Positions 2,551-53,434 of a stretch of 64,000 nucleotides of DNA are shown piece after piece (the first letter of the stretch is position 1; every line of letters begins with the position of its first letter). The notes below the pieces were generated by a model that ran no database searches, had not been told where the DNA came from, and saw only the letters and a program-made list of their open reading frames with translations. This DNA comes from a virus (taxonomy: Duplodnaviria; Caudoviricetes). Position numbers and translations under genes: made by a program. The stretch is from positions 1 through 64,000 of the IMG/VR virus record IMGVR_UViG_3300049172_000088; one strand, written 5' to 3'.

Positions 2551-4146
2551 TCAGAACGGCCAGTCGGCGTTGCGGCCGGCCTCCAGCAACGGGATGAGCC
2601 CGAAGGCAGCGTCCGACAGGCCGCCGAGCGTGTGCCTGTTGCCGGCTCCCGAGGGTGCCGCGCCGTGCTGGTAGCCGCCGAAGTTCCACATGTAGAGCGG
2701 CACGTGCGCCGGGATGAGGTCGTCGATGCGCGCCTCGCGGCCGCCGCCGTACCCGTAGCCGTTCGACGGGAGCCAGCCGGGCCGGGTCTGCTCGTCGGTG
2801 ACGATCACGACCCGGGTGTGGTGAGGCCGCAGGTGCGTCCGGACCGCCGAGGGGATGTCCGTGCCGTCGAGGCGGCGGAACCGCTCGACGACCTTCAGCA
2901 CCGACTCGCCGCGGCTGAACGGCACCGGGCCGTTCTGGATGCCGAACTCCACCAGGTCGGCCGCCTGCGCGCGCAGGGCGAGCGCGGCGCCGAACACCGC
3001 GGCGGCGTCGGCCCACGGCATGTCGGAGTGCGCCGACATGCGCTGGCCCCACATCGACGGCGACCGGTCCACCAGCACCAGCGTGCGCCCGGCCAACGCG
3101 GGCACGTTCGCGAGGGAGTGCCCGAGCGCCTGCTCCAGTGGGTACGCCCACCGCAGCGACGGCGCGGCCCGATATGCGGCCAGGAACCGGAACGGCAGCT
3201 GCCGCGACCTCGCCACCTCAGCCGGGTCGGCGAGCCGGGCCGCCACCGCTGCCGCGACGACGTCGGACACGCCCGACTGGTCGAAGTTCCGCAGGTTCCG
3301 GGTGAGCGCCATCAGCCCCATCGACGGGATGAGCGACTCCCACAGCTTGGCCTTCTCCACCTTGTCGCCCGCCAGCGACAGCACCGTCTCCCACGTCATC
3401 CCGGCCGCGTGCAACATCTCGGCGTCCAGCAGGGCCGCGGGGTCGCGCTTCGCCCGGTGCCGCAGCATGACGTTGGCCGCCAGCACTCGCAGTTCGCCGG
3501 GGATCTCAGCGTCGGCACGGTGGCGGCGGTCGATGGTGTGCCGGAACAGGTTGCCCTGCCAGGGCGTCCCGGGTGAGGCGTGCACCAGTTCCAGCACGTC
3601 GCCGAACCTGAAGCCGCGGGCGTCGCTGTCGTACTTGAGCAGGCTCCGCTCGGTGTACAGCCGCTGGACGGCGTCGGCGATGCCGCGCTTGACCGGCTTC
3701 GGGACGGCGCGGCCGTACCGGGACGTCCAGTAGGCCAGGGCCTCGCCGGGCTCGTCGGCCCGCTGGAGCACGGTGGTGACCAGCTGGCGGTTGAGGCCCT
3801 GCAGTCCGGCGTCGAGCCGGGCCTTGACCGCTTCGAGCGCGGCGACGACCGGCGCAGAACGCATGTTGGCCTTGCCGCGCAGCCAGGGCAGGAATCGGGC
3901 CAGCCACTCGCCGTCCTCGACGGCCATCTGGTGGACGAGGGCGCGGAATCGGTCGTCGCGTTCGCCGGCGGCCTCGTAGAAGGTCTTCTCGCTGACGAGG
4001 TTGGAGACGGCGAGGAGGAACAGCTCGCTCTTGGCGTCGCGGGTGTAGCCGGCGGCGCCCTCGTAGGTGCGGCCGGTCGGCGTGGCCTCGGTCTTGACCG
4101 GGCTGGAGACGGCCAGGCGGGTGGTCGTGCTGTTGAACTTCGTCAT
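2551..4146 (-). CDS. rsr: TROVE-domain Ro60 ortholog (Rsr) with C-terminal VWA domain
   Basis: YTRDAKSELFLLAV..FYE, MGLMALTRNLRNF, SRQLPFRFLAAY, VWA MIDAS-like LVLVDRSPSM and VIVTDEQ; Y RNAs immediately upstream; 531 aa from ATG 4146. Confidence 0.93.
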   Translation of the reverse strand: MTKFNSTTTRLAVSSPVKTEATPTGRTYEGAAGYTRDAKSELFLLAVSNLVSEKTFYEAAGERDDRFRALVHQMAVEDGEWLARFLPWLRGKANMRSAPVVAALEAVKARLDAGLQGLNRQLVTTVLQRADEPGEALAYWTSRYGRAVPKPVKRGIADAVQRLYTERSLLKYDSDARGFRFGDVLELVHASPGTPWQGNLFRHTIDRRHRADAEIPGELRVLAANVMLRHRAKRDPAALLDAEMLHAAGMTWETVLSLAGDKVEKAKLWESLIPSMGLMALTRNLRNFDQSGVSDVVAAAVAARLADPAEVARSRQLPFRFLAAYRAAPSLRWAYPLEQALGHSLANVPALAGRTLVLVDRSPSMWGQRMSAHSDMPWADAAAVFGAALALRAQAADLVEFGIQNGPVPFSRGESVLKVVERFRRLDGTDIPSAVRTHLRPHHTRVVIVTDEQTRPGWLPSNGYGYGGGREARIDDLIPAHVPLYMWNFGGYQHGAAPSGAGNRHTLGGLSDAAFGLIPLLEAGRNADWPF

Positions 4147-4152
4147 GACGCG

Positions 4153-4190
4153 ACGAGGCCCCTCTCCTGGATGGGTGAGAGGGGCCTCGT
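4153..4190 (-). promoter_or_regulatory. 14-bp perfect hairpin covering the rsr ribosome-binding region
   Basis: ACGAGGCCCCTCTC (4153-4166) pairs with GAGAGGGGCCTCGT (4177-4190); 10-nt loop; ends 6 nt before the ATG. Confidence 0.7.
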
Positions 4191-4200
4191 TCAAGAGTTC

Positions 4201-4331
4201 GCGCCCGAGATCGGAGTCGGCGACGGATACAGCTGCTCTGCCAATTGAGCTACGGACCCCAAGGATCCGACAGGACTCGAACCTGCAACCAGCCGATCGT
4301 CGGAAGTAGCCGTTGCCTGCGCACCGGGCGC
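4201..4331 (-). ncRNA. Y RNA, YrlA-type tRNA mimic (copy 2)
   Basis: Terminal stem CCCGGTGCGCAGGCAACGG...CCGTCGCCGACTCCGATCTCGGG encloses a T arm (GCAGG-TTCGAGT-CCTG), a loop-closed acceptor-like stem and a D arm (TAGCTCAATTGGCAGAGC), in permuted tRNA order. Confidence 0.88.
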
Positions 4332-4346
4332 GTCTCTGAAGTTGTC

Positions 4347-4490
4347 CCCTCCCGAGATCAAGGTCGGCGACGGACACGTAAGCGCTCTAGCCATCTGAGC
4401 TACCCACGCCGGTTAGGGCCTGGGGCAGGACTCGAACCTGCGACCTCTCGCTTACAAGGCGAAGTAACCGTTGCCTGCGCACCGGGAGGG
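4347..4490 (-). ncRNA. Y RNA, YrlA-type tRNA mimic (copy 1)
   Basis: Same 5' arm (CCGGTGCGCAGGCAACGGTTACTTC) and 3' arm (CCGTCGCCGACCTTGATCTCGGG); T arm GCAGG-TTCGAGT-CCTGC; D arm TAGCTCAGATGGCTAGAGC. Confidence 0.88.
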
Positions 4491-4991: not shown

Positions 4992-5055
4992 GGGCTGATG
5001 TCCTGTTCGAGGTGGGTGTGGGCGGCCCGCGCGGGGCTGGCCGCCCGGGTGGTGG

Positions 5056-6186
5056 TCAGCGGCGGACCAGGGTCATGAGCCGCTTGTGGGCGGTGGTCTT
5101 GATGTCGTCGTCCGAGCCCTCCAGGAGGGCGGTGGCGCGGGCGATCTCCTCGGTCATGGTCTTGCCGGGGCGGCGGGGCGCGATGTGGTCGAGGTAGTCG
5201 GTAATCGCGCGTTCGGCGGCGTACGCGGTGCGGCCGAGGCGCTCGCTCTCGGCGCGGTACATGTCGGCGAGCTGCTCGCTGCGGCGGGTGGCGGCGTTCC
5301 GGGTCCGCACCGGTGCGTCGTCCTTGACCGGCCACAGGTCCGCGATGAGCTTCTCGACGTCGCGCATGGTGATCTCGGTCTGGGCGAGCAGGGTCTCCTC
5401 GGCCGCCCACTCCTCGTAGTACTCGACGGTCAGCCCGAGCGTGCGGCGGGCCTCGGCGATCCGGTCCATGGCGCTGGCGGTGTGGCGGACCTTCCACGTG
5501 CTGTGCGCGTCGCGGACGGCGAACCGCTCGGTGTTGGCGCACACGACCCGCCACGGGGTGACGAGAGCCTGCGCCGGGGAGCGGCCGTCGTGCCCGTTGA
5601 GCATGACCACGAACGGGACGATCTCGTCGTCGATCCCCTGCTCGTCGATCCGCACCGACTCGGGCAGCCTCATGGTGACGAACACCCGCTTGCCGCCCCG
5701 CAGCGCCCCGGCGCTCTCCCAGATGACGCCGTGGTCGGCCACGAGGTCCTGGAGGAACACGAACAGGTCGCGGTTCTGGATCACCTCGTACTTGCTGCCG
5801 ACGACGCCGAGGGCCGCGCCGGTGTCGGTGCGGACGGTCACGTGGTAGTCGGCGGCGGTGCGCAGCGACGGCGTGGTCTCGCCGTCGCCCATGAAGCTGT
5901 AGCGGACGTTGCGCTTCTCGACGCCGTAGGCGATGCCGCCGAGGCGCAGCACGTCGTCGATGTTGTCGGTCCCGCCGGGGATGACGTTGCCGAGGCCGTG
6001 CCACGCGGGCGTGCTGGTGTAGAGGGCGGCCTCGCCGAGGGTGGTGTCGAGCCCGTCGCGGCCGATCACCTCGTTCGCGTCGAAGCCGGTGCCGGTCCAG
6101 GTGCCGTCGTCACGGCGGACGCTGCCGAAGCGCTGCACGGCGGCGGCGCGCTGGTCGTTGAACTGCTGGTTGACATCGATCGTCAT
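5056..6186 (-). CDS. DUF932 family phage/plasmid protein
   Basis: PAWHGLG, LGVVGSKYEVIQN, WESAGALRGGKRVF, NGHDG, TPWRVVCANT, VRHT motifs. Confidence 0.9.
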   Translation of the reverse strand: MTIDVNQQFNDQRAAAVQRFGSVRRDDGTWTGTGFDANEVIGRDGLDTTLGEAALYTSTPAWHGLGNVIPGGTDNIDDVLRLGGIAYGVEKRNVRYSFMGDGETTPSLRTAADYHVTVRTDTGAALGVVGSKYEVIQNRDLFVFLQDLVADHGVIWESAGALRGGKRVFVTMRLPESVRIDEQGIDDEIVPFVVMLNGHDGRSPAQALVTPWRVVCANTERFAVRDAHSTWKVRHTASAMDRIAEARRTLGLTVEYYEEWAAEETLLAQTEITMRDVEKLIADLWPVKDDAPVRTRNAATRRSEQLADMYRAESERLGRTAYAAERAITDYLDHIAPRRPGKTMTEEIARATALLEGSDDDIKTTAHKRLMTLVRR

Positions 6187-11673: not shown

Positions 11674-11693
11674 CGTGTCCTCTCACTCGTTCC

Positions 11694-11757
11694 GTACCTG
11701 CCGAGCCGCGACGAGCCCCACCCTGACCTGCCATGCCGAGCCATGCCCAGCCGTGAA
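11694..11757 (-). ncRNA. Orphan pentamer-repeat guide (vrRNA-like) unit
   Basis: Intergenic; 10 pentamers (11703-11752) followed on the minus strand by GGCA-GGT; same grammar as the main array. Confidence 0.7.
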
Positions 11758-22141: not shown

Positions 22142-22198
22142 GCGGTCTCCTCGTTGATGGGGTGAACTGATCGGGGGCGAGCCGGGGACGTTGGCTCG

Positions 22199-22271
22199 TG
22201 CGGGCAGGGGGATTCGAACCCCCACCGGGCGATGTTTAAGATCGCTGCGTCTGCCGTTGCGCCATGCCCGC
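22199..22271 (-). tRNA. tRNA-Leu(UAA)-like, 73 nt, short variable loop, no encoded CCA
   Basis: GCGGGCA TG GCGCAACGGCAGACGC A GCGAT CTTAAAC ATCGC CCGGT GGGGG TTCGAAT CCCCC TGCCCGC A. Acceptor, anticodon and T stems pair fully; anticodon TAA; discriminator A73. Confidence 0.85.
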
Positions 22272-27843: not shown

Positions 27844-30303
27844 CGCCGCCCCCTGAGGATGGCGCGGGCGACGGCGAGGGGGGTGACTCGGGCAGGCCGG
27901 GTGGGAGGCTGGGTGGCGCGCACGAGTGCCTCCATGTCGTCCGGCTGCTTGCTGGACGTGGCGGCCGCGTCCGAGGCGGGGGTCAGCTTCTCCAGGTCCG
28001 TGCCCAGGAGCTGCTGCTCGGGTGTGGGCCTGGGCCCGTACTCCAGGTCCATGGCGAGGGCGTGCAGCTCACGCCAGATGTCGGTGGGCTTGTGCCGCGC
28101 GATCAGGCGGAGGCGGCGGGCGATCTCGATGTTCGTCATGAGCGGCCTCGCATCTGGTCAAGGAGGTGCGCGACATCGCCGAACTCGACCGTCACCGTGG
28201 GAGCGGGCGCGGTGCGCATCTGCTCGGCGATGCGCCGGGCGTCGGGGAAGCCGAGGCCGTCGTCTCCGGCGAGGGCGCGGCGTGCGTCCTCGTAGGTGTC
28301 GCTGAGCACCGCGATCTGGAGGTTGGTGAGGTCGCACACCTCGGTCGGCTGGCCGTGCGGGGTCCAGCCGGTGAAGACGACCGGCCCGGCGTACGGCATC
28401 ACGGCGGCGCCCATGCCGGTGAGGACCAGGCCGCCGCAGATGTTGCGCGGGAGCCCGAGCTGGTGGCCGATGTCGTTGACCCAGCCGGACATCATCGGGT
28501 AGTCGCCGGTGCGCGGGATCCGCACCTGGGCGGGGCCAGGCTCGCCAAGGGCGGCCCGCCAGTCGCCGATGGTGACGTGGAACTCACCGTCGTTGTCGAT
28601 CAGCACGTGCCGGGTCACAGGGCACCCCCGAGGCGGCGCAGCAGGTGTGGCGGCCACTCGCCGGGGTGTCGGCGGCACCATGTGGAGCCCGGAATGGGGT
28701 CCTGCGTCTCGACGCGGTGAGTGGCGCGGCGGCCCCGAGCCACGCCCTTGAGGGCGGCCCGGCGGCTCTTGCGCCACACGCGGGTGTCCTGCGGCTTCAT
28801 GACTCGCTCCGGGTGTAGCCGGCGGCCAGGATGGCGCGGGCGACATCCTCGGCACGCGACCACGGGTCGAGGCTGTTGATCACCTCGGCGAGCTGCTTGA
28901 CCTTCTGCTCTTCGGCTTCCGCACGCTGCTGCTCAGCGATCGCGTCGGCGAGGTCGGCGGCGGAGGCGTACCACGAGCACAGGTCCCGGATGCTGTCGGG
29001 CGTCATCACCCCAGGGGGAACCATCAGCGTGCGGACGTGCGCGTTGTCGGTCACCCACGACATCTCGGGGTTGCGGCGCGGCAGGATGATGGGCGGCTCC
29101 TGCCCGGCGGCCTTGTACAGCTCTGTGACGATCGCGGGCAGGTCGGCGGCCCGAGCGTCGATGGACTCGCTGTCCGGGAGGTGCAGTCGTACGTCGCCAT
29201 GCTCGGTCGGCGAGGGCCGGACCTCGAGGTTGCACTTGTACGGGTCGGTGTAGGTGTAGGTCATCTCCCCTCCCGGGGCAGGATGCGGATGGTGCGGTCA
29301 GGGCCGATGGCCATGTCCCAGTCGCCAGACCAGGCGGTGCGGGCGCCCTTGCCGAGCACGTTGTCGAGCGAGCCCTTGTACGGCTCGAACTGGTCGATCG
29401 GGTAGTGCTTGCCGAGGAAGACGATCACGTCGCCGACGGCCAGGTCCCGGCCGGCGATCGGCTCGCCCCAGGCGGGGTCCTGCCAGCCGGGAAGGTGCGG
29501 CGAGTACGGGCGGGTGTACATCTCGCGCACCGCCCGCTCCTTCGCAGCCGCATGGGCGAGTGCCTGCTGCTGCCGGGCCTTGTCGCGGGCGGCGGCCCGG
29601 GCGGCGCGGTTCGCCTCACGGCAGTCCTCGCACACCTCGACCTTGCGATGGAGGTGCTGCTTGTAGCCGCTGGGCGTGCCGTGGTTGATCCCTTCGGCCT
29701 GGCCGATGACGCTCATGGCTCACCTCGCCAGGCTTCGTCGAGGTCGCGGAGCTCCGGCTCGTACTCGCGGAGCAGGCGCCGGTCCCGCCACCGCTCCCGC
29801 CAGGCTCGAAGGTCCCGGCGGGCGGCGCGGAAGGCGCGGACGAACGCACGGAAGGCGGCGAGCTCCAGCATCCCGACGACGCCGCACATGAACAGGAAGG
29901 CCACGACGCGCCCGATCTCAGCCATCAGCCACCCCCGCGGCCTTGCGCCACGCCTTGATCTCGGGGTCGTCGAGGTAGCCCGCCCCGTGGCCGGTAAGCG
30001 CGGTCGCGGCGGCCAAGGCGAGCGTCGCGTGCACCTGTGCCTGGGCTGCGAGCGCGTGGCCGACGACCGGGCTGCCGCCATCGCCGTAGGTGAAGTGGTA
30101 GGCGCGCTCGGCGAGCCGCTCAGCCTCGCGGTAGTGGGCCGGGCCGTTCACTCTGCTCCTCCGCTCTGCAGGGCCTCAGCCACGTCGGGCGCGATCTCCT
30201 CCGCGATGTGGCACAGGGTGTCGATCAGGTCGCCGCGGTTGTCGGCCTTTCGGGCGTCGCGGATCAGCCGGTCGGTCGCGTCCCGGCGGTTCTTACGCGG
30301 CAT
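27840..30303 (-). CDS. Run of small hypothetical ORFs (27840-28139, 28136-28618, 28797-29264, 29261-29716, 29918-30151 and others)
   Basis: Coupled ORFs; 29261-29716 has HGT..GY..H.....VCEDC (actinophage motif). Confidence 0.55.
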
Positions 30304-31247
30304 CAGCCCTCACCCGGCTTCACAGCCGCGGGCCAGCCGTCGTCGCCCTCGGCGGGCTCGCCAGCGGGCGCCTGGGGCGGGCCATCTTCGCCCTGGGTGG
30401 GTTCGTCGGTGTCGGAGATGACCTCGCCCTCCCAATCGACCTCGGGCAGCTCGGACTCGCCAGCCTCGTTCTCCCGCTGGAGCAGCTCAACGAGCTCCGG
30501 CGACTGGGGCACCCAGTCGGCGAGGCGGCGGACGGCGGACTTGCGCCACATGGCGTCGAACTCGGTGTGCCAGGTGCTGTTGAACCAGCCCTTGTCGGGG
30601 GTGCGGGCGAACCCTTCGGGGTCCTCTCGGCGGTGCCGCTCGGCAAGGGCGTACGCCTTGCTGTACTGGTCGCGGACCTCTTCGGCCTCGGCCCGGTTCA
30701 GAGTGATGATCTTCGACCGGCCGCCGCCCTTGATCTCGGCGTACGCGTAGGCCAGGACGATCGGGCCGCGCTCGCTGGAGAGCACGTCCGGCTCGTGCCA
30801 GAACGTGCCGCCGTCGCCGATGCGGTACTGCCACGGGTCGTTCTCATAGATGAACTCCGCGACCACGCTGGTGACGCGGCCAGAGCGGTACATGAGCTCG
30901 ACCAGGCCCTGCCACTGGGCGATGAACGTCGCCTTGTCGCCGTACGGCACGATCGCGGCCTGCTTCGTGCCGGGCTCCAGCCCGAGCCGCGCCGACTCCA
31001 GCATCGCGGCGAGCAGGCTCTCAGGGGTGCAGTCGAGCAGCTTGTCGTTCTTCTGCACGCAGGTGAGCGCCATGCGCAGGAACCGATCGACCGACACATG
31101 CTGAGGAAGCGCCATGTCGAACTGGGGCTTCATCTGCTGGAACAGCTGGCGGACGCTGGAGACCTTCGCCCTCTTGGCGATCTCCTTCGACTGCTGCGGT
31201 CGCCGGCCGCCGGCGCGCTGGGCCACGCGGTCTCTGAGGTTGGTCAT
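30303..31247 (-). CDS. recT: RecT-family single-strand annealing recombinase
   Basis: DRFLRMAL...LLDCTPESLLAAMLESARLGLEP...IVPY...WQGLVELMYRSG...AMWRKSAVRRL. Confidence 0.93.
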   Translation of the reverse strand: MTNLRDRVAQRAGGRRPQQSKEIAKRAKVSSVRQLFQQMKPQFDMALPQHVSVDRFLRMALTCVQKNDKLLDCTPESLLAAMLESARLGLEPGTKQAAIVPYGDKATFIAQWQGLVELMYRSGRVTSVVAEFIYENDPWQYRIGDGGTFWHEPDVLSSERGPIVLAYAYAEIKGGGRSKIITLNRAEAEEVRDQYSKAYALAERHRREDPEGFARTPDKGWFNSTWHTEFDAMWRKSAVRRLADWVPQSPELVELLQRENEAGESELPEVDWEGEVISDTDEPTQGEDGPPQAPAGEPAEGDDGWPAAVKPGEG

Positions 31248-32305
31248 TCGGAACTCCCGGGGACGCGAAGCACGCGGGCACGGTGGGCCCGGTACTTGTC
31301 GGGGTGGTGGGTCTTGAGTGCGTCGATGTCGAGCACGCTGACGCGCCGCTGGTGCCTCTCGGCGATGCGCGGGTGGTCTTCGCGGAACCGCTTGGGGGCG
31401 AACGTGCCGTTGCGCACCCACGTGTAGAGCGTGCGGCCGGGCGCGACGGCGATCTCCGCGTCACCCAGCTTGTGCTTGAGCTTGTTCTCGATGCCTTCGA
31501 GCTCCCGCTTGAGCTCCTTGCGTTCATCGAGCAGCTCGCGGCGGCGGGCGATCAGCTTGTCGGCCTCGGCCACCTCCTCGGGCGAGAAGAACCGGATGCT
31601 GTCGGCCTTCACGTCCCACAGGTGCGAGAGCAGCTCGTCGGTGGCTTCCAGGTCGCCCGGCTCCGGCGGCACCCCGGCGATGACGTGGTTGTGCCAGAAG
31701 TCGCCGACCGCCTTCACGAGGTGGTCGATCAGCTCCTGGTCGTACGCCAGCCGGAAGTGCACGAAGTCGTCGTCGAGGAGGCCGGCCACCCATGCCTTGC
31801 GGTAGCCGGTGACGGCCATGCCCCAGCACGCCTGGATGGCGGGCCCGTCCGGTGGTTCCTCGCCGCGCCAGTCCTCAGCGCGGGCAGACCGCCAGGTGCG
31901 GGTCTTGCACTCCAGCACGCCGCCGTCACCGGACAGTTCGCCGCCCTCGGCCTCGAAGACGGCGCGGTCGATGTTGACCAGCATCCACGGGTGCTCGGCG
32001 TGCTGGAGCGTTCCGGGCGGGTCGACGACGGCGAGGCCGGTCTCTTCGGCGAACAGTTCGGCGACCAGCGATTCGAGCTTCTGGCCGCGCCGGGCGGACC
32101 GGTCGAGCTTGGGGTCGCGCCGCTCTTCGGCCTCGCCGCGCTTGTCGAGGTAGACGTGCAGCGGGCCGCGCCGCTTGTCCATGCCGAGGATCGCGGCCAC
32201 GTCGCTGCCGCCGATCCCCTGCCGCCGGACGCCCAGCCACTCCTCGCGGGGCAGCCCGGCCGGGGCCAGCAGGCGTGCGGTGGGCGTGAGGAGGTCGGCG
32301 TTCAT
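31244..32305 (-). CDS. YqaJ-like viral recombinase exonuclease
   Basis: EEWL..RRQGIGGSDVAAILG, HPWML.NIDR, VLECKT; directly upstream of recT. Confidence 0.92.
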   Translation of the reverse strand: MNADLLTPTARLLAPAGLPREEWLGVRRQGIGGSDVAAILGMDKRRGPLHVYLDKRGEAEERRDPKLDRSARRGQKLESLVAELFAEETGLAVVDPPGTLQHAEHPWMLVNIDRAVFEAEGGELSGDGGVLECKTRTWRSARAEDWRGEEPPDGPAIQACWGMAVTGYRKAWVAGLLDDDFVHFRLAYDQELIDHLVKAVGDFWHNHVIAGVPPEPGDLEATDELLSHLWDVKADSIRFFSPEEVAEADKLIARRRELLDERKELKRELEGIENKLKHKLGDAEIAVAPGRTLYTWVRNGTFAPKRFREDHPRIAERHQRRVSVLDIDALKTHHPDKYRAHRARVLRVPGSSE

Positions 32306-35300
32306 GTCGCACGCTCCGCGATCTGCCGCAGGTTGGCGATCCCGGTGTCCGTGGCCTCGGCCCGGTTGCAGGCGGCGACGTAGCCGGGGTACTCGGCGGC
32401 GAGGCGGCGTCGGTTGTGCGGGTCGGCGCGGGCGATGAGCGCGATCAGGTCCTTGGTGAACGAGCCGGGCTCCATGCCGGGTTCGCCGTAGTGCCACAGG
32501 ACGTGGTGGGCGATCGTGGGCGTGATCTCCTCGGAGCCGAGCTCGTCGTCGCGGGCGGCGAGCACGCGCTTGATCGGCCCGTAATGGTGGTGGAGGAATG
32601 CCACCTCGTAGCCAGTCCCACCCGGCGCACCGGAGTGCAGGCGGATCCCTCCCGCGTACTCGGTCGCGAGGTAGCGGACGCCGTGGGCGTCTTCCCACAG
32701 CTCACCAGCCTTGGGCGGTCCTTCGGCAGGCACGAGCCGCGTGATCTCGACGGCGCTGAACTCGTGCTGAACCTCCTCCCGGTCGGTTCGGGCCCCCTCG
32801 CGGTACTCGTAGACCAGAGAGCCACCATCGCAGTTCAGGACTCGCGCGCCCCTGATGACGATGTCCACGATCTCGCCGGGCTGGTACTTCATGCCGTGGC
32901 CTCCTGGATGTGCTGGCCGGCGAGCAGGCCGACGAGGGCGAGCGTGGGTGCGTCGGCGTCGGCCTCGCGGGCGATCCCGCCGAGGTGGGTGGCGGTGCGC
33001 ATGGCGACCCAGCCGACGATGCTGGGGTCGAGGTCGCAGAACTCGCCACGCAGGTCGTCGCCGATGATCGCGCCGAGCGTGCGTACGAGGTCGGCTCCGT
33101 CGTCGGTCAGCTCGCCGAGCGCGTCGGTGATCGCGGTGTGGGTGGCTTCGACCCAGCCGGGCCAGACCGGTGCGTACGTCATGTCCTCCCCCTCACACAT
33201 GGCAATCGACGGCGATCAGATACGCGGAGTCGGCGAGGGACTCGATGTAGGCGTTCGCGACTTCGAGGTAGCCGATCCGATCGCCCTCTCTGTCCGTGGA
33301 TGCTCCGAACCAGCCCATCTCGCCGGGCGCCATCCACTTGCCCTCGACCGTGATCAGCGCGTAGCCCGGAACCGCCTGCGCCCGCGCCAGCTCCACGAAC
33401 AGCCCACGCGGCTTGGCGAACTCTCCGATCCGGCATGTGAACGAGTCGATGTCAGAGCCCTTGATCGCCTGCACGCGCTCCTGGGCGCCGTACTCGACAC
33501 GGGCACGGTTCCACGCTGCCCGCTTCTCCTCGACGTCCTCGGTATCGGCGGCCTCCTTCTCGGCGCGCTCGGCGAATGCCCTCCACGGCTGCGCCTCAGG
33601 CAGGCCGTCGGTGAGCTTCTCCCAGGAGTCGTACTCGGCGTGGGCGCGGTTCGCCTTCTGCAGCCGCATCGCGTTGAGGTCCAGGTGCTTCTTCTGGCCG
33701 CCGTCCACCCATCCGGCTTGGTCCCTCTTCGGGGAGTCCCAGTCGCGGCGAGGTGCCCACTCGGCGCACGCGGCGTACGCCTCGAAGTCGGTGGTGGCGA
33801 AGTAGCCACCCCATCGGCCGCCGATGCGCCAGTAGTCCCACTTGCCGTCCGGGTTGCGCGTGGAGAGCGTATATGCCTGGTCCGTGGCCTCGTCGTAGTG
33901 CAGCGGCTCGGAGTCGTCGTCGTACCGCTCGTTGTGGAACTGGACGATGTCTCGCCAGCGGATCGGGTCGGGCAGGGAGTGGAACAGGCGTGCATCTTCC
34001 GCCTGCTTCTGTCGCTGCACCTCGGGCGTCTCCTTCGACGAATCCGACGACCACCCAAGCTGGTCCGGCTTGTAGGGCAGAATTCCCGTGCCATCGGCGA
34101 AGTCCTTGGCGGTCCGCTTGAGCGACCTGTACAGCCAGAACTCCGACGCCTCACCTTTCTCGTAGTCGCGGTACTCCTCGACTTCGAGGTTCTCGTCGAA
34201 GGGCGCCAGGGCGGCCTCCAGCTTGCTGGCGTCGTCGAGGCACACGATCACGGAGAAGTGGGTCATCGGCTTCCACCCTTCGCGAGAGCGGCGCGCAGCT
34301 TCAGCGCCTGGCGTCCGACGCGCTTGGCCAGGAGGAGGCCGCGCTCGCGCATCGTCTGCCGCAGGTGCCGCTCGGTTCGGGACCCGCCGGTGCGAAGCGG
34401 CGCCATCCACTCGTCGGTATCGGTGATCGCCCTGCGCGCCTGGTCGTACGCGGTGACGTCGGCCGCCGTGATGCGCGGCATGCTCGCCGTCGCGGGCTCC
34501 GGGTCGATCGGCGGGGCGTCGCGGCGGACGGCCCGCATCGGCTCGGTGACGGCCGCGGCCCGGGCGCGGTGCTTGCCGGCCATCAGAGGTCGCCCTCCTC
34601 TTCGGGGTCGCGCTGCGCGTCGGCCAGTTCGACGACGCGGGCGACGGCCTTGTCCATGGCCGGGTCGGGCGCGGCGATCTGCGCGGCGACGGACTGCGGC
34701 GCCTGAGTGGAGTCCTGGGCCGGCGCCGGAGCAGTCATGGTGCGGGCATCCTCGGCGGCCTTGAGCCGGTCGCGGATCTCGCGCAGGTCGCCGCCCCAGA
34801 ACCCGGCCTGGGCCTGGATCACGTCGGCGAGGTCGGCAGCGGCCGACACGCGGGTGAGGTCACCGGTGGGGATCTGGATGCGGAGCGGCCCGAAGTCGAA
34901 CGAGCTCCAGCCGTCCTCGGTCAGCGTGTGCCGCACCTGGTCGGGGGTGACCTGGGCGTAGATGAAGACGTTGAGCGGGGTCTGCTCCATCAGGAGCCCT
35001 CCAGGCAGGTACGGGTGTGGATGCCGCCGGGCACGGGCGCGCCGCAGCGGCAGAGGGGGATCTCGCGCGCCGTCAGCTCTTCGGTGACGGCGGGCCGAAT
35101 CACGTGGTCGAGCTGAACGGCGCTGCCCGCGTTGGCGATCGAGGTCGCGGTGTTCCACATGCCGATCAGCTCGTCGGTGCTGGCCTCGTGGATGCCCTCG
35201 ATCACCGCGCCCCACGGGTTTGGATCGGCCTCGGCGAGGGCGGGCTTGGCCTGGCGCGGAGTGCGGCTCAGCAGCACGTACAGGACGGCGACGATCGCGA

Positions 35301-36055: not shown

Positions 36056-37805
36056 GCCGCCTCCCCGCACAGCCCGGCGACGATCCGCCGCAGGTCGGGC
36101 AGCCTGTTGCTGCCCGCAAACAGCCGGTTGGCCTGCTTTCGGTCGAGTCCGAGGACCCGCTCGGCGCGGAGCTGGGCGTAGACGACCCGCACGCCAGCGC
36201 GGGCCTCGAAGGCCCACGGGTCGTCCGGCTCGGCGATCAGCGCGTCACCGAGCGCCTCGTCCGGATTGTCGGCGTACCACCGGCCGCCCGCGAGCTGAGC
36301 GGCCCACCCGGCGAAGCACATGCCGGAGCCGCACCGGAACTCGGTCTGGTCCCACTCCTCAGGGTGGGCCTCGATGTGGGCGAGGGTCTGCTTGAGCAGC
36401 GCCACGTTGATCGTCATGCCGCCGCCTCCTGTTCGGCCTGTTCGCACAGGTCGGAGACGATCGCGAAGAGGCGCGGCAGGTCATTGCTCGCGCTGAACAG
36501 GCGCACCGCCTGCTCGTCGCTGAGGCCCAGCACCCGCTTGGCCCGCGTCTGCACGGTCACCGCCTGGAGCGGCTCGCCATCCCAGCCGTCAGCCGGGCCG
36601 TACGCGGCCACGTCCTTGGTGCGGTCGTCGTCCTCGGGCGCGAGGACGTAGTGGAGCGGGTGCACCTCGTCCGTCGCCCACCGGCCGCCCGCCAGGATCA
36701 CGGCGTGCCCGGCGATGCAGCTCCGCCAGCAGCCCTGGTACCAGTCACCCCGGTTGGCGTCGATGTGCTGGAGCGTTCCGACCAGCAGCTCCGTGTTGAT
36801 CGCCATCACGCCACCTCACACAGGTCGTGAGCGATCCGCCTCAGGTCGTCGAGCGTGTTGTCGAAGGCGAACAGCGCCCGCTCCTGGTCTGCGGTGACGT
36901 CGAGCAGTCGGGCGGCCTGGCCCCACGCCGCCATGCCGGTGACCTCCGGACCACCAGCGGCGGCCAGGACGTGACGGGCGAAGGCCGGCCGCCAGTCGCC
37001 GTGCAGTCGCCACCGCTCAGGGTGGCGGACCACCTCGCCGAACGCGGACTTCAGCAGCGCGGTGTTGGCCATCACGCACCTCCCCGGAAGGGCAGGCGGC
37101 GGCCGGACGGCGTGCGGGTGTCGGGCTCCCCCTGCGGTCGGCGCGGCGGCGTCGGCCGGAGGATGCGCTTCTGGGTGCCCATCACGCGGCCTCCGCCCTG
37201 GTCAGGCGCTCCATCGCGGCCGGGTCGATCGGGTCCACGTACGGGATGCCGTACCGAGTCGCGACGACACCGGCGTGCTGGCGCAGGCGGCGGGGCGCGA
37301 TGCCGCTCTCACCGCCGTGGAACATGGGCGGCTGGCCCGGGCGATGCTCGACGACCGCGAGGGGCAGGCGACCGTCGTCCAGCGCCTCGCCGGGCGTGAG
37401 CTCGTTCTCGGCGACGAACCGGATCGTGACGTGGCGAATCTCGGCGATCAGCTCGCCAACAACCTCGCGGAGACTGTCCAGGTCGTTCTCACCATGGAAC
37501 AGGTCGTACGCCTGGTCGCCATCCAGCCCCAGCTCCCGCTTAGCGCGGTCGTGCACAGTGACGACCCGCGCCCCGTCGCGGGCGACCAGAGACGGCTCAC
37601 CCTTCTCGGCGGCCCAGAGCATGCCATTCGGGTCGAGGGCCTGGCCGCCAGCGAGGCGGGCGGCATGGTTGGCGAAGCACGCGGCGTAGGTCCGCTGGTT
37701 CCACTCGGCGGGGTTGGCCTCGATGCGGGCCAGCGTCTCGCGGAGCAGCGCGGCGTTGATCGTGCTCGCCACGGCGTCGGCGGTGATGGTCTGGTGGGGC
37801 ATCAT
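36052..37805 (-). CDS. Four tandem paralogous proteins (36052-36417, 36414-36809, 36806-37075, 37182-37805)
   Basis: Shared N-terminus IN.ALL..TL.HIEA.P..W.Q...C.A..A...AGG and C-terminal A...LG(L)...QA..LF...N.L..LR.IV..L. Confidence 0.75.
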
Positions 37806-38945: not shown

Positions 38946-39158
38946 TCAGGCGGCCTGTTGAGCGGGGCGGATGTACGGGGCGAGGAGCGCGGCCAGGCGA
39001 GTGCACTGCTCCTCGGTGAGGGGCGGATCGTGCTCGCCGTCGCGCCAGCCGGCCTCGAAGGCTTGCTGCGGCGTGGTGCAGATCTCCTGCCTGCCACGCC
39101 CCGCCGCACCGAGACGCGCCTTGCCGTACCGCGCCGGGCCTGGGTCGTTAGTGGTCAC
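38946..39158 (-). CDS. Small phage protein whose 5' part overlaps an orphan guide unit
   Basis: ICTTPQQAFEAGWRDG..DPPLTEEQC.RLAALL; GTGA overlap with the upstream gene. Confidence 0.6.
   Translation of the reverse strand: MTTNDPGPARYGKARLGAAGRGRQEICTTPQQAFEAGWRDGEHDPPLTEEQCTRLAALLAPYIRPAQQAA
39087..39140 (-). ncRNA. Orphan pentamer-repeat guide (vrRNA-like) unit
   Basis: 9 pentamers (39096-39140) followed by GGCA-GGC on the minus strand. Confidence 0.72.
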
Positions 39159-39577
39159 GCCGCGTCCTCACCGACGTCGCGGCGGACCATGGCGTAGAAC
39201 TCGGAGAACTGCTCGTAGCGACGCCGGAGGGCCTTCCATTCGCGCTCCATGTCCTTGAGCAGGAGCTGCGCCGTGAACGGGTCCGTGGTCACCTTGTCCA
39301 CGGGCTCGTACACGTGGCCCTTCTCCGACCGAACGGCGTGGAACGCGCGCACGCTCTGCTCGGGGTTCTTCTCGTCGGCCTCGCGGTAGACGATCCGAAC
39401 CGACCGGATGAGCTGGTGCGCCTGCTCGCGTCGCCACGCCTCGCCGGCGACCGCGTCGTTCCACTCGAACCGGTCGTGCAGCGGGTGCTGCTCGTCGCGA
39501 GCTTCGTCCACCACCAGGGCGGGCGTGAGCTGCGCGTGCCGGTCGTAGATGGCCTGGAGCTGCTCTCGGAGACTCAC
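39155..39577 (-). CDS. Accessory protein coupled to the RAMP-like gene
   Basis: 140 aa; LTPALVVDEARDEQHPLHDRFEWND..AGEAWRREQAHQLIRSVRI; GTGA overlap with the upstream gene. Confidence 0.8.
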   Translation of the reverse strand: MSLREQLQAIYDRHAQLTPALVVDEARDEQHPLHDRFEWNDAVAGEAWRREQAHQLIRSVRIVYREADEKNPEQSVRAFHAVRSEKGHVYEPVDKVTTDPFTAQLLLKDMEREWKALRRRYEQFSEFYAMVRRDVGEDAA

Positions 39578-40206
39578 GAGCTGAGGACCTCCACTTCGCG
39601 GGTCGGGTCGATCTTGTAGGTGCCGAAGTCGCCGTCCCGCTCCGGCCGCCACTCGCCGACGCCGACGCCCATGCCGCCAGCGTCGATCAGCGACAGGACA
39701 GAGCCGCGGGTGAGGGCGGAGGTGACGTAGGTGACTTCCAGGACGGCGGACCACTCGCGGAACTCGGGCCGGTACCTGAGGTCGGTGCCGCCGCGGCCGA
39801 CGGTGACGACGTCCTCGCGCATCTGGGCCTCGCCGTCGATGCGGGTGAGGGCGCGGCCGTCGTCGCCGACCTCGCCGCCGAAGAACAGGAACTGCTTGAG
39901 GGCGGTCATGGTGACGCCGGAGTAGAAGCGGGCGCCGCCGATGGTGGCGGCCTTGAACGCGATCGACGGGAAGCCGGGCGAACCGTCCTTGAGCCGGTAG
40001 TAGGCGGCCTCGTACTCGGCGTGCGGGTCCTTCGGCTGCTTGGGCGACTTGCGGCCCTGCATCGCGTCGAGCATGGCCTTTTTGGCCTTTTCGGAGAATC
40101 TGTGGACGATCAGAGGCGTTGTGCCCACGATCGGGACAGAGATCGTTTCCGCCGCGATCCGGTCAATCTGGACGATCGCGTCGTCCGACTTTCGGGCAGC
40201 ACACAT
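39574..40206 (-). CDS. Cas7/RAMP-like protein (Vipr-like)
   Basis: 210 aa from ATG 40206 with a GAAAGG RBS. Has a beta strand + G.TPL start (IVGTTPLIVH), GFPSIAFKAA, LRYRPEF..W, and a C-terminal Gly-rich loop (GGMGVGVGEWRPERDGDFGTY) as in RAMP proteins. Confidence 0.8.
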   Translation of the reverse strand: MCAARKSDDAIVQIDRIAAETISVPIVGTTPLIVHRFSEKAKKAMLDAMQGRKSPKQPKDPHAEYEAAYYRLKDGSPGFPSIAFKAATIGGARFYSGVTMTALKQFLFFGGEVGDDGRALTRIDGEAQMREDVVTVGRGGTDLRYRPEFREWSAVLEVTYVTSALTRGSVLSLIDAGGMGVGVGEWRPERDGDFGTYKIDPTREVEVLSS

Positions 40207-40238
40207 TGCGCTAACCTTTCGATGAGAAGTGAGTGATG

Positions 40239-40270
40239 GGGTCCGGACGCCGTGCAGGGCGACCGGACCC
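40239..40270 (-). terminator. Hairpin between the array and the RAMP-like gene (terminator or processing site)
   Basis: GGGTCCGG (40239-40246) pairs with CCGGACCC (40263-40270). Confidence 0.5.
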
Positions 40271-40282
40271 TTCTTCATGCGT

Positions 40283-41323
40283 GGGCCGCGCCTGCCATGA
40301 CGGGCCATGCCGAGACGTGCGGAGCCGCAACAGGACGAACCGCGCCTGCCCTGCCAAACCCAGCCGTGCCTAGTCCCGCCGTGACATGCCGGACCGCACC
40401 ACACCGAGCCATTCCTGCCACGCCAAGCGACGCCAAGACCCGCCCTGACAAGACGAGCCGTGCCGAGCCATGCCTGCCGTGCCGCGCGATGCTGTGACGG
40501 ACCTAGACGGACCGCGCCAAGACCCGACTGCCGGGCCACGCCTTGACTAGCCGAGACCAGACCCGCCATGTCCTGCCTGCCGTGCCATGCGGAACCTAGC
40601 CGGGACACACCACAACAAGCCCCGCCTTGCCGCGCCTGACAAGCCGGGCCGCACCATGCGGAGCCGAGCGGAGACTTGCCACGCCACACCGTGCCTGCCG
40701 GACCTGGCCATGACTGGCCGCGCCTCGCCGGACCTCGCCTCGCCACGCCTGCCGAACCACGCCGTGCCCGAACGTGACAAGCCCTGCACAGAACAACCGC
40801 GCCTGCCACGCCAAGCCACGCCAAGCCCGACCGGGACCTGACTGGACATGCCGCGCCATGCCATGACTGCCAAAGCTGGCCGTACGGCGCCACGCCGTGA
40901 CTAGCCCTGACCCGCCAAACCGGGCCTGCCGAACCGTGCGATGCCGAACCAAGCCCGGACACGCCCCGCCGAACCCCGCCTGCCACGCGAAGCCATGACC
41001 AGCCGCGCCGCGACGAGCCCTGCGAAGCCATGCCTGCCAAGCCAGGCCACACCCTGCCTGGCCGAACCGCGACCTGCCACTCCGCGCCTGCCAAGACAAG
41101 CCAAGCCCCGCCGAGCCGAGACCCGCCGGACCGAACCACGCCTGCCATGACGGGCCAAGCCGTGACCTGCCGGGACTTGCCCAGCCTTGCCTGCCTCGCC
41201 ATGCCTGAACTAGCCCAGCCCGAACATGCCCCACCCCGCCAGGACTGCCTCACCACACCAAGCGGAACCCCGCCGAGCCCGGCCACATCTCGCCTGGACC
41301 GGCCAAGCCTGACCATGCCTGCC
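40283..41323 (-). repeat. Pentamer-repeat guide array: 18 units of 9-14 x (GGY/GTC)NN with GGCA separators
   Basis: Parsed by hand: 191 pentamers + 18 tetramers = 1027 bp, exactly 40297-41323. One more GGCA and 2 pentamers lie at 40283-40296. Confidence 0.93.
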
Positions 41324-41445
41324 ACGTTGATCGTCAGAAGGCTCTTCCTGGCGTTGCAGTTGCGGCACCGGCCGCGCCAGCTCTCGTTCGAGGAGTAGCA
41401 CTTGCCACAGGTCCACGGCGGCTGCTTCGGCGGCTGCGGCGTCAC
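41324..41445 (-). CDS. RanBP2-like zinc-finger ORF 5' segment reading into the array
   Basis: WTCGKCYSSNESWRGRCRNCNARK; GTGA overlap with cro; the frame stays open through the array. Confidence 0.5.
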
Positions 41446-41714
41446 GCTGCACCCGCCTCAGCCTGGGTCTCCTCCGCCGGCTCCCCGTAGGGATTCGCGA
41501 GGATGGCGCGGCGGTCGGTGATGCCCAGTGCCCGCAGCATCGCGGTGAAGACCGTGGGGCTTACGTGGGTCCGGCTCCCCAGTTCGACGTGGGCCAGGTA
41601 GGCCCTGCTAATTCCGATGAGGTCGGCGCACGCCTGGGTTTTGATCCCGCTGCGTACTCGGATCTCTCGGAACGCGGGTCCGTTGACCGCGACCATCGTG
41701 GGGGTTCTGGGCAT
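41442..41714 (-). CDS. Cro-like XRE HTH regulator
   Basis: FREIRVRSGIKTQACADLIGISRAYLAHVELG; divergent from the repressor. Confidence 0.85.
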   Translation of the reverse strand: MPRTPTMVAVNGPAFREIRVRSGIKTQACADLIGISRAYLAHVELGSRTHVSPTVFTAMLRALGITDRRAILANPYGEPAEETQAEAGAA

Positions 41715-53310: not shown

Positions 53311-53434
53311 TAGGCTGAGGGTGTTCGTGGTTCGGCACGGCCTGGTGCGGTCCGGCGTGTCTAGGCTGGTCATGGCTTGGCACGTCCCGGCAGGCGAGCC
53401 CAAGGCGGGCGGGGTCAGGGATCCTGCCCGCCTT
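53311..53434 (+). ncRNA. Stand-alone pentamer-repeat guide gene (vrRNA-like) with its own promoter and hairpin
   Basis: TAGGCT (-10-like) at 53311; 12 pentamers at 53329-53388; GGCA-GGC; hairpin AAGGCGGGC...GCCCGCCTT at 53402-53434. Confidence 0.82.

Follow-up and report, generated by a model that had tools for sequence, protein, structure and literature searches.

A VIPR-format guide in a soil actinophage spells the conserved motif of the small gene family whose member contains it

We analysed the first 64 kb (64,000 nucleotides, hereafter the window) of an 83,685-bp soil virus record. The virus is a high-GC temperate actinophage. Its minus strand carries the tail, lysis and serine-integrase genes together with a long early operon, whose main features are given in Table 1. 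At Rfam gathering thresholds the sole match within the window was a tRNA. A tRNA-Leu with anticodon TAA is found at 22198-22271, and a TROVE/Ro-like RNA-binding protein (PF05731, PHROG 850) is encoded at 2551-4377, both on the minus strand. The sequencing runs listed as containing the stretch comprise one DNA run and zero RNA runs.

Table 1. Features of the early region and of the VIPR locus.
Feature	Position	Strand	Remarks
RecT-like and RecE-like genes	30303-32698		
70-aa ORF	38946..39158	-	guide overlapped by residues 1-25; conserved core from residue 26 to residue 70
Resident near-target, TPQQAFEAG	39048..39074	-	guide match 14/18, skip at wobble
Guide (vrRNA-type unit)	39086..39140	-	(GGY-NN)x9, then closing GGCAGGCAGG
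vipr-accessory-like gene	39155..39577	-	140 aa; PHROG 15946; homolog of Mattes gp53
vipr gene	39574..40209	-	Cas7/RAMP-like; 211 aa; PHROG 4652; directly after the array
Upstream guide array	40282..41327	-	about 18 units of 9-14 GGY-NN pentamers
First array unit	41250..41323	-	14 pairs; other edge of the cassette; reads the ribbon half
Zinc-ribbon remnant MTPQPPKQPPWTCGKCYSSNESWRGRCRNCNARKS	41341..41445	-	N-terminal half of the split gene; aligns with longer family members
Near-target of the first array unit	41394-41353	-	18/28
cro-like HTH gene	41442..41714	-	head of the early operon; collinear with related proviruses
Promoter-like site	41750-41721	-	upstream of the cro-like gene

The locus is a VIPR system. 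As described in the text of a recent preprint, VIPR consists of a minimal Cas7-like Vipr protein and of guide RNAs made of 9-16 GGY-NN units (10.64898/2026.04.26.720920). The NN pairs read the DNA while skipping one base, and the targets are mostly coding sequences in which the skip falls at the wobble position. The same preprint retained targets with at least 80% NN match, and the legend of its fig. S18 mentions 'staggered' arrays (10.64898/2026.04.26.720920). A second preprint also describes VIPR systems (10.64898/2026.04.26.720927). VIPR is reported to hit the regulators of rival phages, e.g., the cro-targeting guides of the E. coli system block the early operon.

The vipr product matched the 'SUSP1 Vipr protein' in a sequence search of the PDB (36pp_D, E 6.8e-5) over residues 143-195, which include GVGxWRP. 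We found Vipr homologs adjoining arrays in Mycobacterium phage Mattes and in 12 viral loci. The accessory gene is kept immediately 3' of vipr in 10 related viral loci. Its 140-aa product had no Pfam match, and its AF2 model (pLDDT 89) gave weak, winged-helix-like fold matches, with none at E ≤ 0.001 in Foldseek; the model suggests nothing pointing to a nuclease. The upstream array has a strict period of 5 nt and a superperiod of 49/54/59, and reads GGY-NN on the minus strand and NN+GCC/GAC/ACC on the plus strand. GTC is common as a fixed triplet. Each unit is closed by a one-base break (GGCA then GG, the staggered type), and these GGCAGG breaks stand where a structured 3' tail is absent. In the six closest Vipr relatives (L027-L032, 62-81% identity), arrays of 5-20 units lie right after the stop of the accessory gene, at about 5040-6000 in each locus, whereas upstream arrays are absent from all six. 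With 18 units upstream and a single unit downstream, the window resembles a circularly permuted version of this layout.

The single downstream unit shares its strand with vipr, the end of which lies 434 nt upstream. The plus strand reads CCTGCCTGCC at 39086-39095, followed by nine NN+GCC/ACC/GAC pentamers with the NN pairs at 39096-39137. In target-strand reading the code is AC CC GC GA GC TT GT GC GG, which corresponds to the residues T P A D/E A F/L V A G. The ten fixed triplets are 7 GGC, 2 GGT and 1 GTC. A repeat finder placed the unit in the same family (D2) as the array units, and all members of the 18-unit array have its closing one-base break, with the identical GGCAGGCAGG ending; like them, it has no structured 3' tail. 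A reading made from the letters alone (the sequence-only reading) had called this an orphan guide. Since it begins 15 nt past the stop of the accessory gene, where the arrays of the relatives begin, and has vipr and the accessory gene directly upstream, we class it instead as a one-unit downstream array of the VIPR locus. That the unit is a guide, of the GGY-NN kind read with a one-nucleotide skip, is borne out.

The leading punctuation of the unit is degenerate (CCCA, against GGCA in relatives). The RNA 5' end, read as 'C CA GG', offers a candidate tenth pair, TG, which agrees with the phage's own site as well and would bring it to 16/20; because relatives show GGCA there, this pair may be degenerate punctuation instead of code. 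Such units are not a product of coding composition. Outside the main array we counted 34 pentamer-pattern sites scoring at least 20/27 in the real genome, versus 0-9 in 20 codon-shuffled genomes, and 25 of the 34 fell in three clusters (11688-11728, 39076-39101, which is the guide unit, and 53408-53363).

The guide unit is overlapped by the first codons of the 70-aa ORF. The frame of this ORF is open from GTG 39158, a codon that shares letters with the accessory-gene stop (GTGA), and no other ATG, GTG or TTG was found 5' of its core (ICxTPxxAFxAGW..DPPLT..Q..RLAALLAPY). The core, if still made, therefore carries 25 guide-coded residues. These residues are not conserved in the protein family described below, most members of which start 2-15 residues before CRTP, and form the junction of a cassette insertion. 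Compared with the homolog in a related provirus (G001), the core has a pN of 0.19 and a pS of 0.47. From these values it looks constrained, and most of the divergence may predate the insertion. Dual coding of the guide stretch, as a putative translated leader, is plausible but unproven.

The resident near-target lies within this core, 9 nt from the guide end and 21 nt from the nearest NN pair. Its codons at 39074-39048 are ACG CCG CAG CAA GCC TTC GAG GCC GGC. The decoding of the NN pairs and the in-phase match to these codons, as given in the sequence-only reading, proved arithmetically correct. Three of the four mismatched letters fall in adjacent central pairs. The self score of 14/18 thus amounts to 78%, and would rise to 80% with inclusion of the doubtful tenth pair. 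At the scale of the window such a score is the expected extreme and is not above chance: 14/18 was reached at two sites under the one-nucleotide skip and likewise at two under the null skip of zero. A 15/18 site elsewhere in the record (64464) is most likely a chance match. Within the adjoining 138-nt conserved core the match does exceed chance. None of 500 order-shuffled guides reached 14 there (the maximum, 13, was attained by 12 of them), and the other 20 guides of the phage scored 0.43-0.70 versus 0.78 for the guide under study. When all guides were scored against the phage and two related proviruses under skip rules of 1, 0 and 2, the 18 array guides and two dispersed units stayed within the null rules, and only the 39086-39140 guide rose above them.

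We then assembled the family of the 70-aa protein. A tblastn search against 50,697 phage records gave no match, and an earlier word-indexed protein search with the 70-aa protein returned only itself. A profile search of 1.84 billion representative proteins retrieved 79 relatives, and a later word-indexed search enlarged the set to 183. We scored 180 proteins, self included, and left out three of more than 200 aa. The family consists of small actinophage proteins of 41-153 aa, with named sources in Nonomuraea, Spongiactinospora, Herbidospora and Actinomadura, and with the core (I)CRTP[DEA][DE]AF.AGW.DG..DPPLT..Q..RLAALLAPY. The guide code spells the most conserved motif of this family. It equals the family consensus except at position 7, where the Val of the code occurs in none of the 180 proteins.

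The scores implied for these proteins were 17/18 in seven of them, 16/18 in 30, 15/18 in 49, 14/18 in 45 (among which self), 13/18 in 20, 12/18 in 18, and 11/18 or less in the remaining 11. About half of the family (86/180) thus scores at least 15/18, which is above the published 80% filter. The seven best include the two nearest homologs (78% and 74% identity), which read TPAEAFAAG and TPADAFAAG, residues whose first two codon letters are unambiguous. The scores of 17/18 were inferred from amino acids. In its DNA, the G001 provirus has ACT CCA GCC GAG GCG TAC GCC GCC GGA, an in-frame match of 16/18 (89%). In all eight related loci for which DNA was examined, the best site of the guide was the homologous motif, with scores of 16/18 (G001), 14/18 (G002 and L017), 15/18 (L018) and 14-15/18 (L023-L026). 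A profile scan of genome contigs with the family alignment found only two loci, at 14/18 and 15/18. Shuffled guides scored mostly 13-14 against the family; one of 300 reached 16 and none reached 17. The guide code thus corresponds to the gene containing the guide, as had been proposed, and does so beyond shuffled codes.

The further proposal, that the guide encodes a non-self allele of this gene, stands in part. Non-self alleles do fit better than the resident one (16/18 in DNA and 17/18 in proteins versus 14/18). The perfect allele was found neither in viral contigs, nor in 401 genomes of a likely host family, nor among the 180 family proteins, so that the decoded allele was found in no homolog examined, although the matches of homologs beat those of shuffled codes (17 versus a maximum of 16). 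Similarly, the resident allele is mismatched as had been stated, with 4 of 18 letters differing, but not unusually so, given that 94 of the 180 family members score 14 or less. Escape mutations left no significant sign in the comparison with the nearest homolog, where identity was 6/9 in the footprint and 27/33 in the rest of the core.

The expected perfect matches in homologs were sought directly. Neither the exact 18-letter code nor a relaxed code (Val or Ala at position 7, plus Trp) had any match in viral contigs. The exact code matched once in metagenome contigs, in frame and over the 21-letter code of the guide, at L016 385-414 on the minus strand (..STPADAFVAGWG..). The gene is a carboxyltransferase-like cellular gene unrelated to the family, and we judged the match to be due to chance; should a host with this gene exist, the site would offer the guide a perfect off-target. 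Allowing at most one mismatch in 20, the 401 genomes of a likely host family gave one match, in a LysR-type regulator that is not a family member. With up to three mismatches, one 13.4-Mb genome gave three matches, versus four for the reversed control.

The position of the gene in related genomes points to the origin of this arrangement. In the G001 and G002 proviruses, the family gene lies directly 3' of the cro-like HTH gene, and both lack vipr, the accessory gene and arrays. Some of their G-rich stretches have high pentamer scores, but are not clean guides. The phage is collinear with G001 over the repressor, the cro-like gene (63.5% over 74 aa) and the core (74% over 46 aa, from 39083), whereas the distance from cro to the core is about 2.4 kb in the phage and 156 bp in G001. 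The zinc-ribbon remnant can be aligned to the N-terminal ends of five longer members of the family, where 4-11 residues join the ribbon to the RICRTP core. In one of these (P0107) the ribbon exceeds the Pfam cut-offs for Zn_ribbon_3 and DUF7577. The collinearity of the flanks with G001 and the match of the remnant to the N-termini of the longer members show that an ancestral gene with ribbon and core was split by a 2.4-kb VIPR cassette made of the array, vipr, the accessory gene and the guide. This insertion between ribbon and core was encountered in a single genome.

At its other edge, this cassette begins with the first array unit. It decodes to S T [KN][DE] P [DE] R T S [CW] R [KN][CW][IM], which is the zinc-ribbon motif of the family. 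It scored 24/28 on P0122, 22/28 on P0107 and 18/28 on self, versus a maximum of 21 for 300 shuffles; the two non-self scores were inferred from amino acids, assuming CGN and TCN codons for Arg and Ser. When the 21 guides were scored in frame against the 179 non-self family proteins, only the 39086-39140 guide and the first array unit stood out. The units of the locus that match the family are therefore 2 of 19, exactly those abutting the gene halves, out of 171 pairs of units that could be formed. At each edge, the guide reads the adjoining half of the gene, and guide and diverged self-site are therefore tightly linked. In intact alleles the two footprints are about 12 codons apart. Among the six related VIPR loci, we found no convincing similarity between guides and flanks; the only value above 0.8 was 0.81, for a unit of eight pairs.

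Two observations concern the translation of the locus. Start and stop codons overlap as GTGA at three places, 41442-41445 (cro-like gene and ribbon), 39574-39577 (vipr and accessory gene) and 39155-39158 (accessory gene and 70-aa ORF). These three successive overlaps suggest translational coupling along the whole cassette. A minus-strand frame is also open from the zinc-ribbon remnant across the whole array, in phase into vipr (40210-41445). None of its 377 codons is a stop, the other two frames contain 5 and 5, and only 19 of 2000 pentamer-block shuffles kept it stop-free. This frame may let ribosomes cover the long non-coding array.

The reading we favour, and hold to be rather more probable than all others taken together, is that the unit is a guide in working format that silences the intact small early gene of rivals and probably spares the phage's own copy. 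Silencing of rivals is the most likely function because the code fits the intact copies of other phages better than its own. The guide would be transcribed within the early operon, on the minus strand, from the promoter-like site. Vipr protomers would then sit on the GGY triplets and display the nine NN pairs, and the resulting filament would pair with the coding strand of TP[A/D/E][E/D]AF.AG through the published one-base-skip code. The target would be the intact small early gene, which lies directly after cro in related phages. By analogy with the cro-targeting guides of the E. coli system, binding would block the early transcription of the rival. The own copy, with 4 of the 18 read letters different, would probably be spared. 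With each edge guide kept a few bases from its diverged self-site, recombination would not separate the pair.

Four other explanations were weighed against silencing of rivals. That a Gly/Ala/Arg-rich coding stretch resembles its neighbouring codons by chance is very improbable, even if the self match is an ordinary extreme at the scale of the window, equalled under null skip rules: such units are absent from codon-shuffled genomes, no shuffle among 500 attained the self score in the core or among 300 the family score, and the homologous motif was the top site in eight independent loci. The unit might also be inert, the last survivor of a decayed downstream array, with its frame serving merely as the start for a truncated gene. 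This has to be considered because relatives carry many units (5-20, versus a single one here) and because the leading punctuation is degenerate; one fixed triplet is also GTC. Yet 9 of the 10 triplets fit GGY, GTC occurs often in the main array, the unit retains its closing punctuation, and the code still scores 17/18 on the family, so we regard an inert remnant as unlikely. Self-regulation is similarly improbable. In this case, when enough Vipr has built up, the guide would bind the phage's own site and act as a delayed brake on the part of the early operon that lies beyond the cassette. The self score is at the threshold, which makes such a brake conceivable: the site is the best match in the adjoining core, very close to the guide end, and with the tenth pair it attains the target filter of the papers. 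Non-self alleles nevertheless fit better (16-17/18), three of the four mismatches are in adjacent central pairs, and the published surveys, as described in the preprint texts, are without self matches of at least 80% and take lower self scores as avoidance of autoimmunity.

The remaining explanation concerns the spread of the cassette. Homing endonuclease genes, and TnpB with its omega-RNA in IS200/IS605 elements, are mobile elements that target the allele free of the element. The VIPR cassette resembles them in being specific for the uninterrupted form of its own locus and in having resident flanks that are poor targets. It differs in that no nuclease is evident and in that the flanks were changed by point changes and not by interruption of the site. 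The two edge guides would tag the allele that lacks the cassette, one to either side of the insertion point. R-loops might stall replication or transcription at the rival allele, and RecE/RecT-type recombination might then copy the cassette and the linked resistant flanks into the rival genome. The cassette would thus be an RNA-guided selfish insert, in which binding at both gene halves, besides silencing the rival, promotes recombinational copying, i.e., nuclease-free homing. We give this a low probability. It would account for the position of the cassette inside its own target gene, for the closeness of the two footprints in intact alleles, and for the reading of the family by the two flank-adjacent units only; RecT-like and RecE-like genes are present, and the layout is the one expected if a circular unit of vipr, accessory gene and array had opened between two neighbouring guides. 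If true, it would also give a reason for the short distance, of a few bases, that is kept between guide and self-site. Against it, the cassette contains no visible nuclease, integrase or transposase, and the fold matches of the accessory protein are weak and winged-helix-like. Moreover, the insertion is known from one genome, the six related loci lack the flank signal, and VIPR is reported, for the type studied, as a silencer and not as a cutter.

Compared with the published VIPR systems, as far as the preprint texts describe them, the locus shares a Cas7-like Vipr similar to that of SUSP1, GGY-NN pentamers, the one-base skip at the wobble position, early or regulatory targets in rivals, guides on both sides of the protein genes, and staggered one-base punctuation. 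It encodes Vipr, carries on the same strand an adjacent run of nine pentamers, which is inside the published range of 9-16, and has a natural coding target read with the wobble skip at 80% or more. It differs by its source, a soil actinophage (actinobacterial hosts are not named in the main text), by the lack of a structured 3' tail in favour of GGCAGG breaks, by the tolerance of GTC as fixed triplet, and by an accessory gene from another family than the comparable ones. The main text of the cryo-EM preprint makes no mention of mismatch or seed with regard to the mismatch tolerance of VIPR.

Solo guides (solo vrRNAs), with self scores below non-self scores, are described in another preprint (10.64898/2026.10.15.759431). 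According to its text, they occur on vipr-less phages or satellites and are aimed at vipr, other guides, satellites and host repeats (10.64898/2026.10.15.759431). Our guide shares with them its isolation from the main array, the reading of conserved first and second codon positions, and the lower self score. It does not belong to an element devoid of vipr and vap, as in the definition of solo vrRNAs, since vipr and the accessory gene lie in the same operon directly upstream; in contrast to those described, it lies inside the reading frame of the gene family that it reads, and is paired with a second edge guide for the other half of the split gene. To judge from these preprint texts, VIPR and its solo guides are thus already in print, as are targets read with the skip at wobble and self scores below non-self ones. 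What appears to be new, from the arrangement of the locus, is that the cassette lies within the gene it targets, that its two edge guides read the two halves of this gene, and that the frame of the gene overlaps one of these guides. A cassette in its own target gene, with edge guides that read the adjoining halves, was not found in the main texts of the VIPR preprints, and no paper was found on vrRNA together with homing, the preprints being covered by their main texts. The guide is a five-base re-encoding of a site with three-base periodicity, and read-through of the flank therefore cannot have produced it.

The first descriptions of VIPR appeared only in 2026, and most of what is known of its natural targets comes from phages of enterobacteria and Pseudomonas. 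The locus provides a clear natural pair of guide and target in an actinophage, in which the guide is directed at the best-conserved motif of the early gene that comes first after cro. The published match threshold falls between about half of the known alleles, which lie above it, and the resident allele, which lies just below when nine pairs are counted. This layout makes it possible to test how many mismatches are needed to protect self, and whether VIPR cassettes spread in a homing-like manner.

Two further solitary units of guide format were found in the record. One is at 11699-11752, where the plus strand reads TGCC followed by NN-GCC x10, so that the RNA would be on the minus strand; this unit occupies the gap between genes immediately upstream of gene 11673-11029. 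Its best score was 15/20, and no target above background was found in the phage, the two related proviruses or the small-gene family. The other is at 53329-53392, between gene 53806-53516 and the endolysin gene (53288-52518). There the minus strand reads TGCC followed by NN-GCC x12, and the RNA would be on the plus strand, antisense to the late genes; the unit would therefore need its own promoter. Its target was not found (best score 18/24).

The analysis also flagged cluster F mycobacteriophages, an experimentally tractable group, as carriers of arrays and of vipr and accessory gene pairs that are annotated as hypothetical. Mycobacterium phage Mattes (L001, record 36718-37711) has a five-unit GGY-NN array between gp51 and gp52. 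Its gp52 is the Vipr homolog and gp53 the accessory homolog, both annotated as hypothetical proteins. The set of Mattes-type matches comprises 26 other Mycobacterium phage records, of cluster F type, and gp39 of Gordonia phage UmaThurman is another Vipr homolog. A further long GGY-NN array, followed by a gene start, is found at 2760-3300 of a 4.4-kb viral contig (L005), and was noticed only because its translation resembles the guide-coded peptide.
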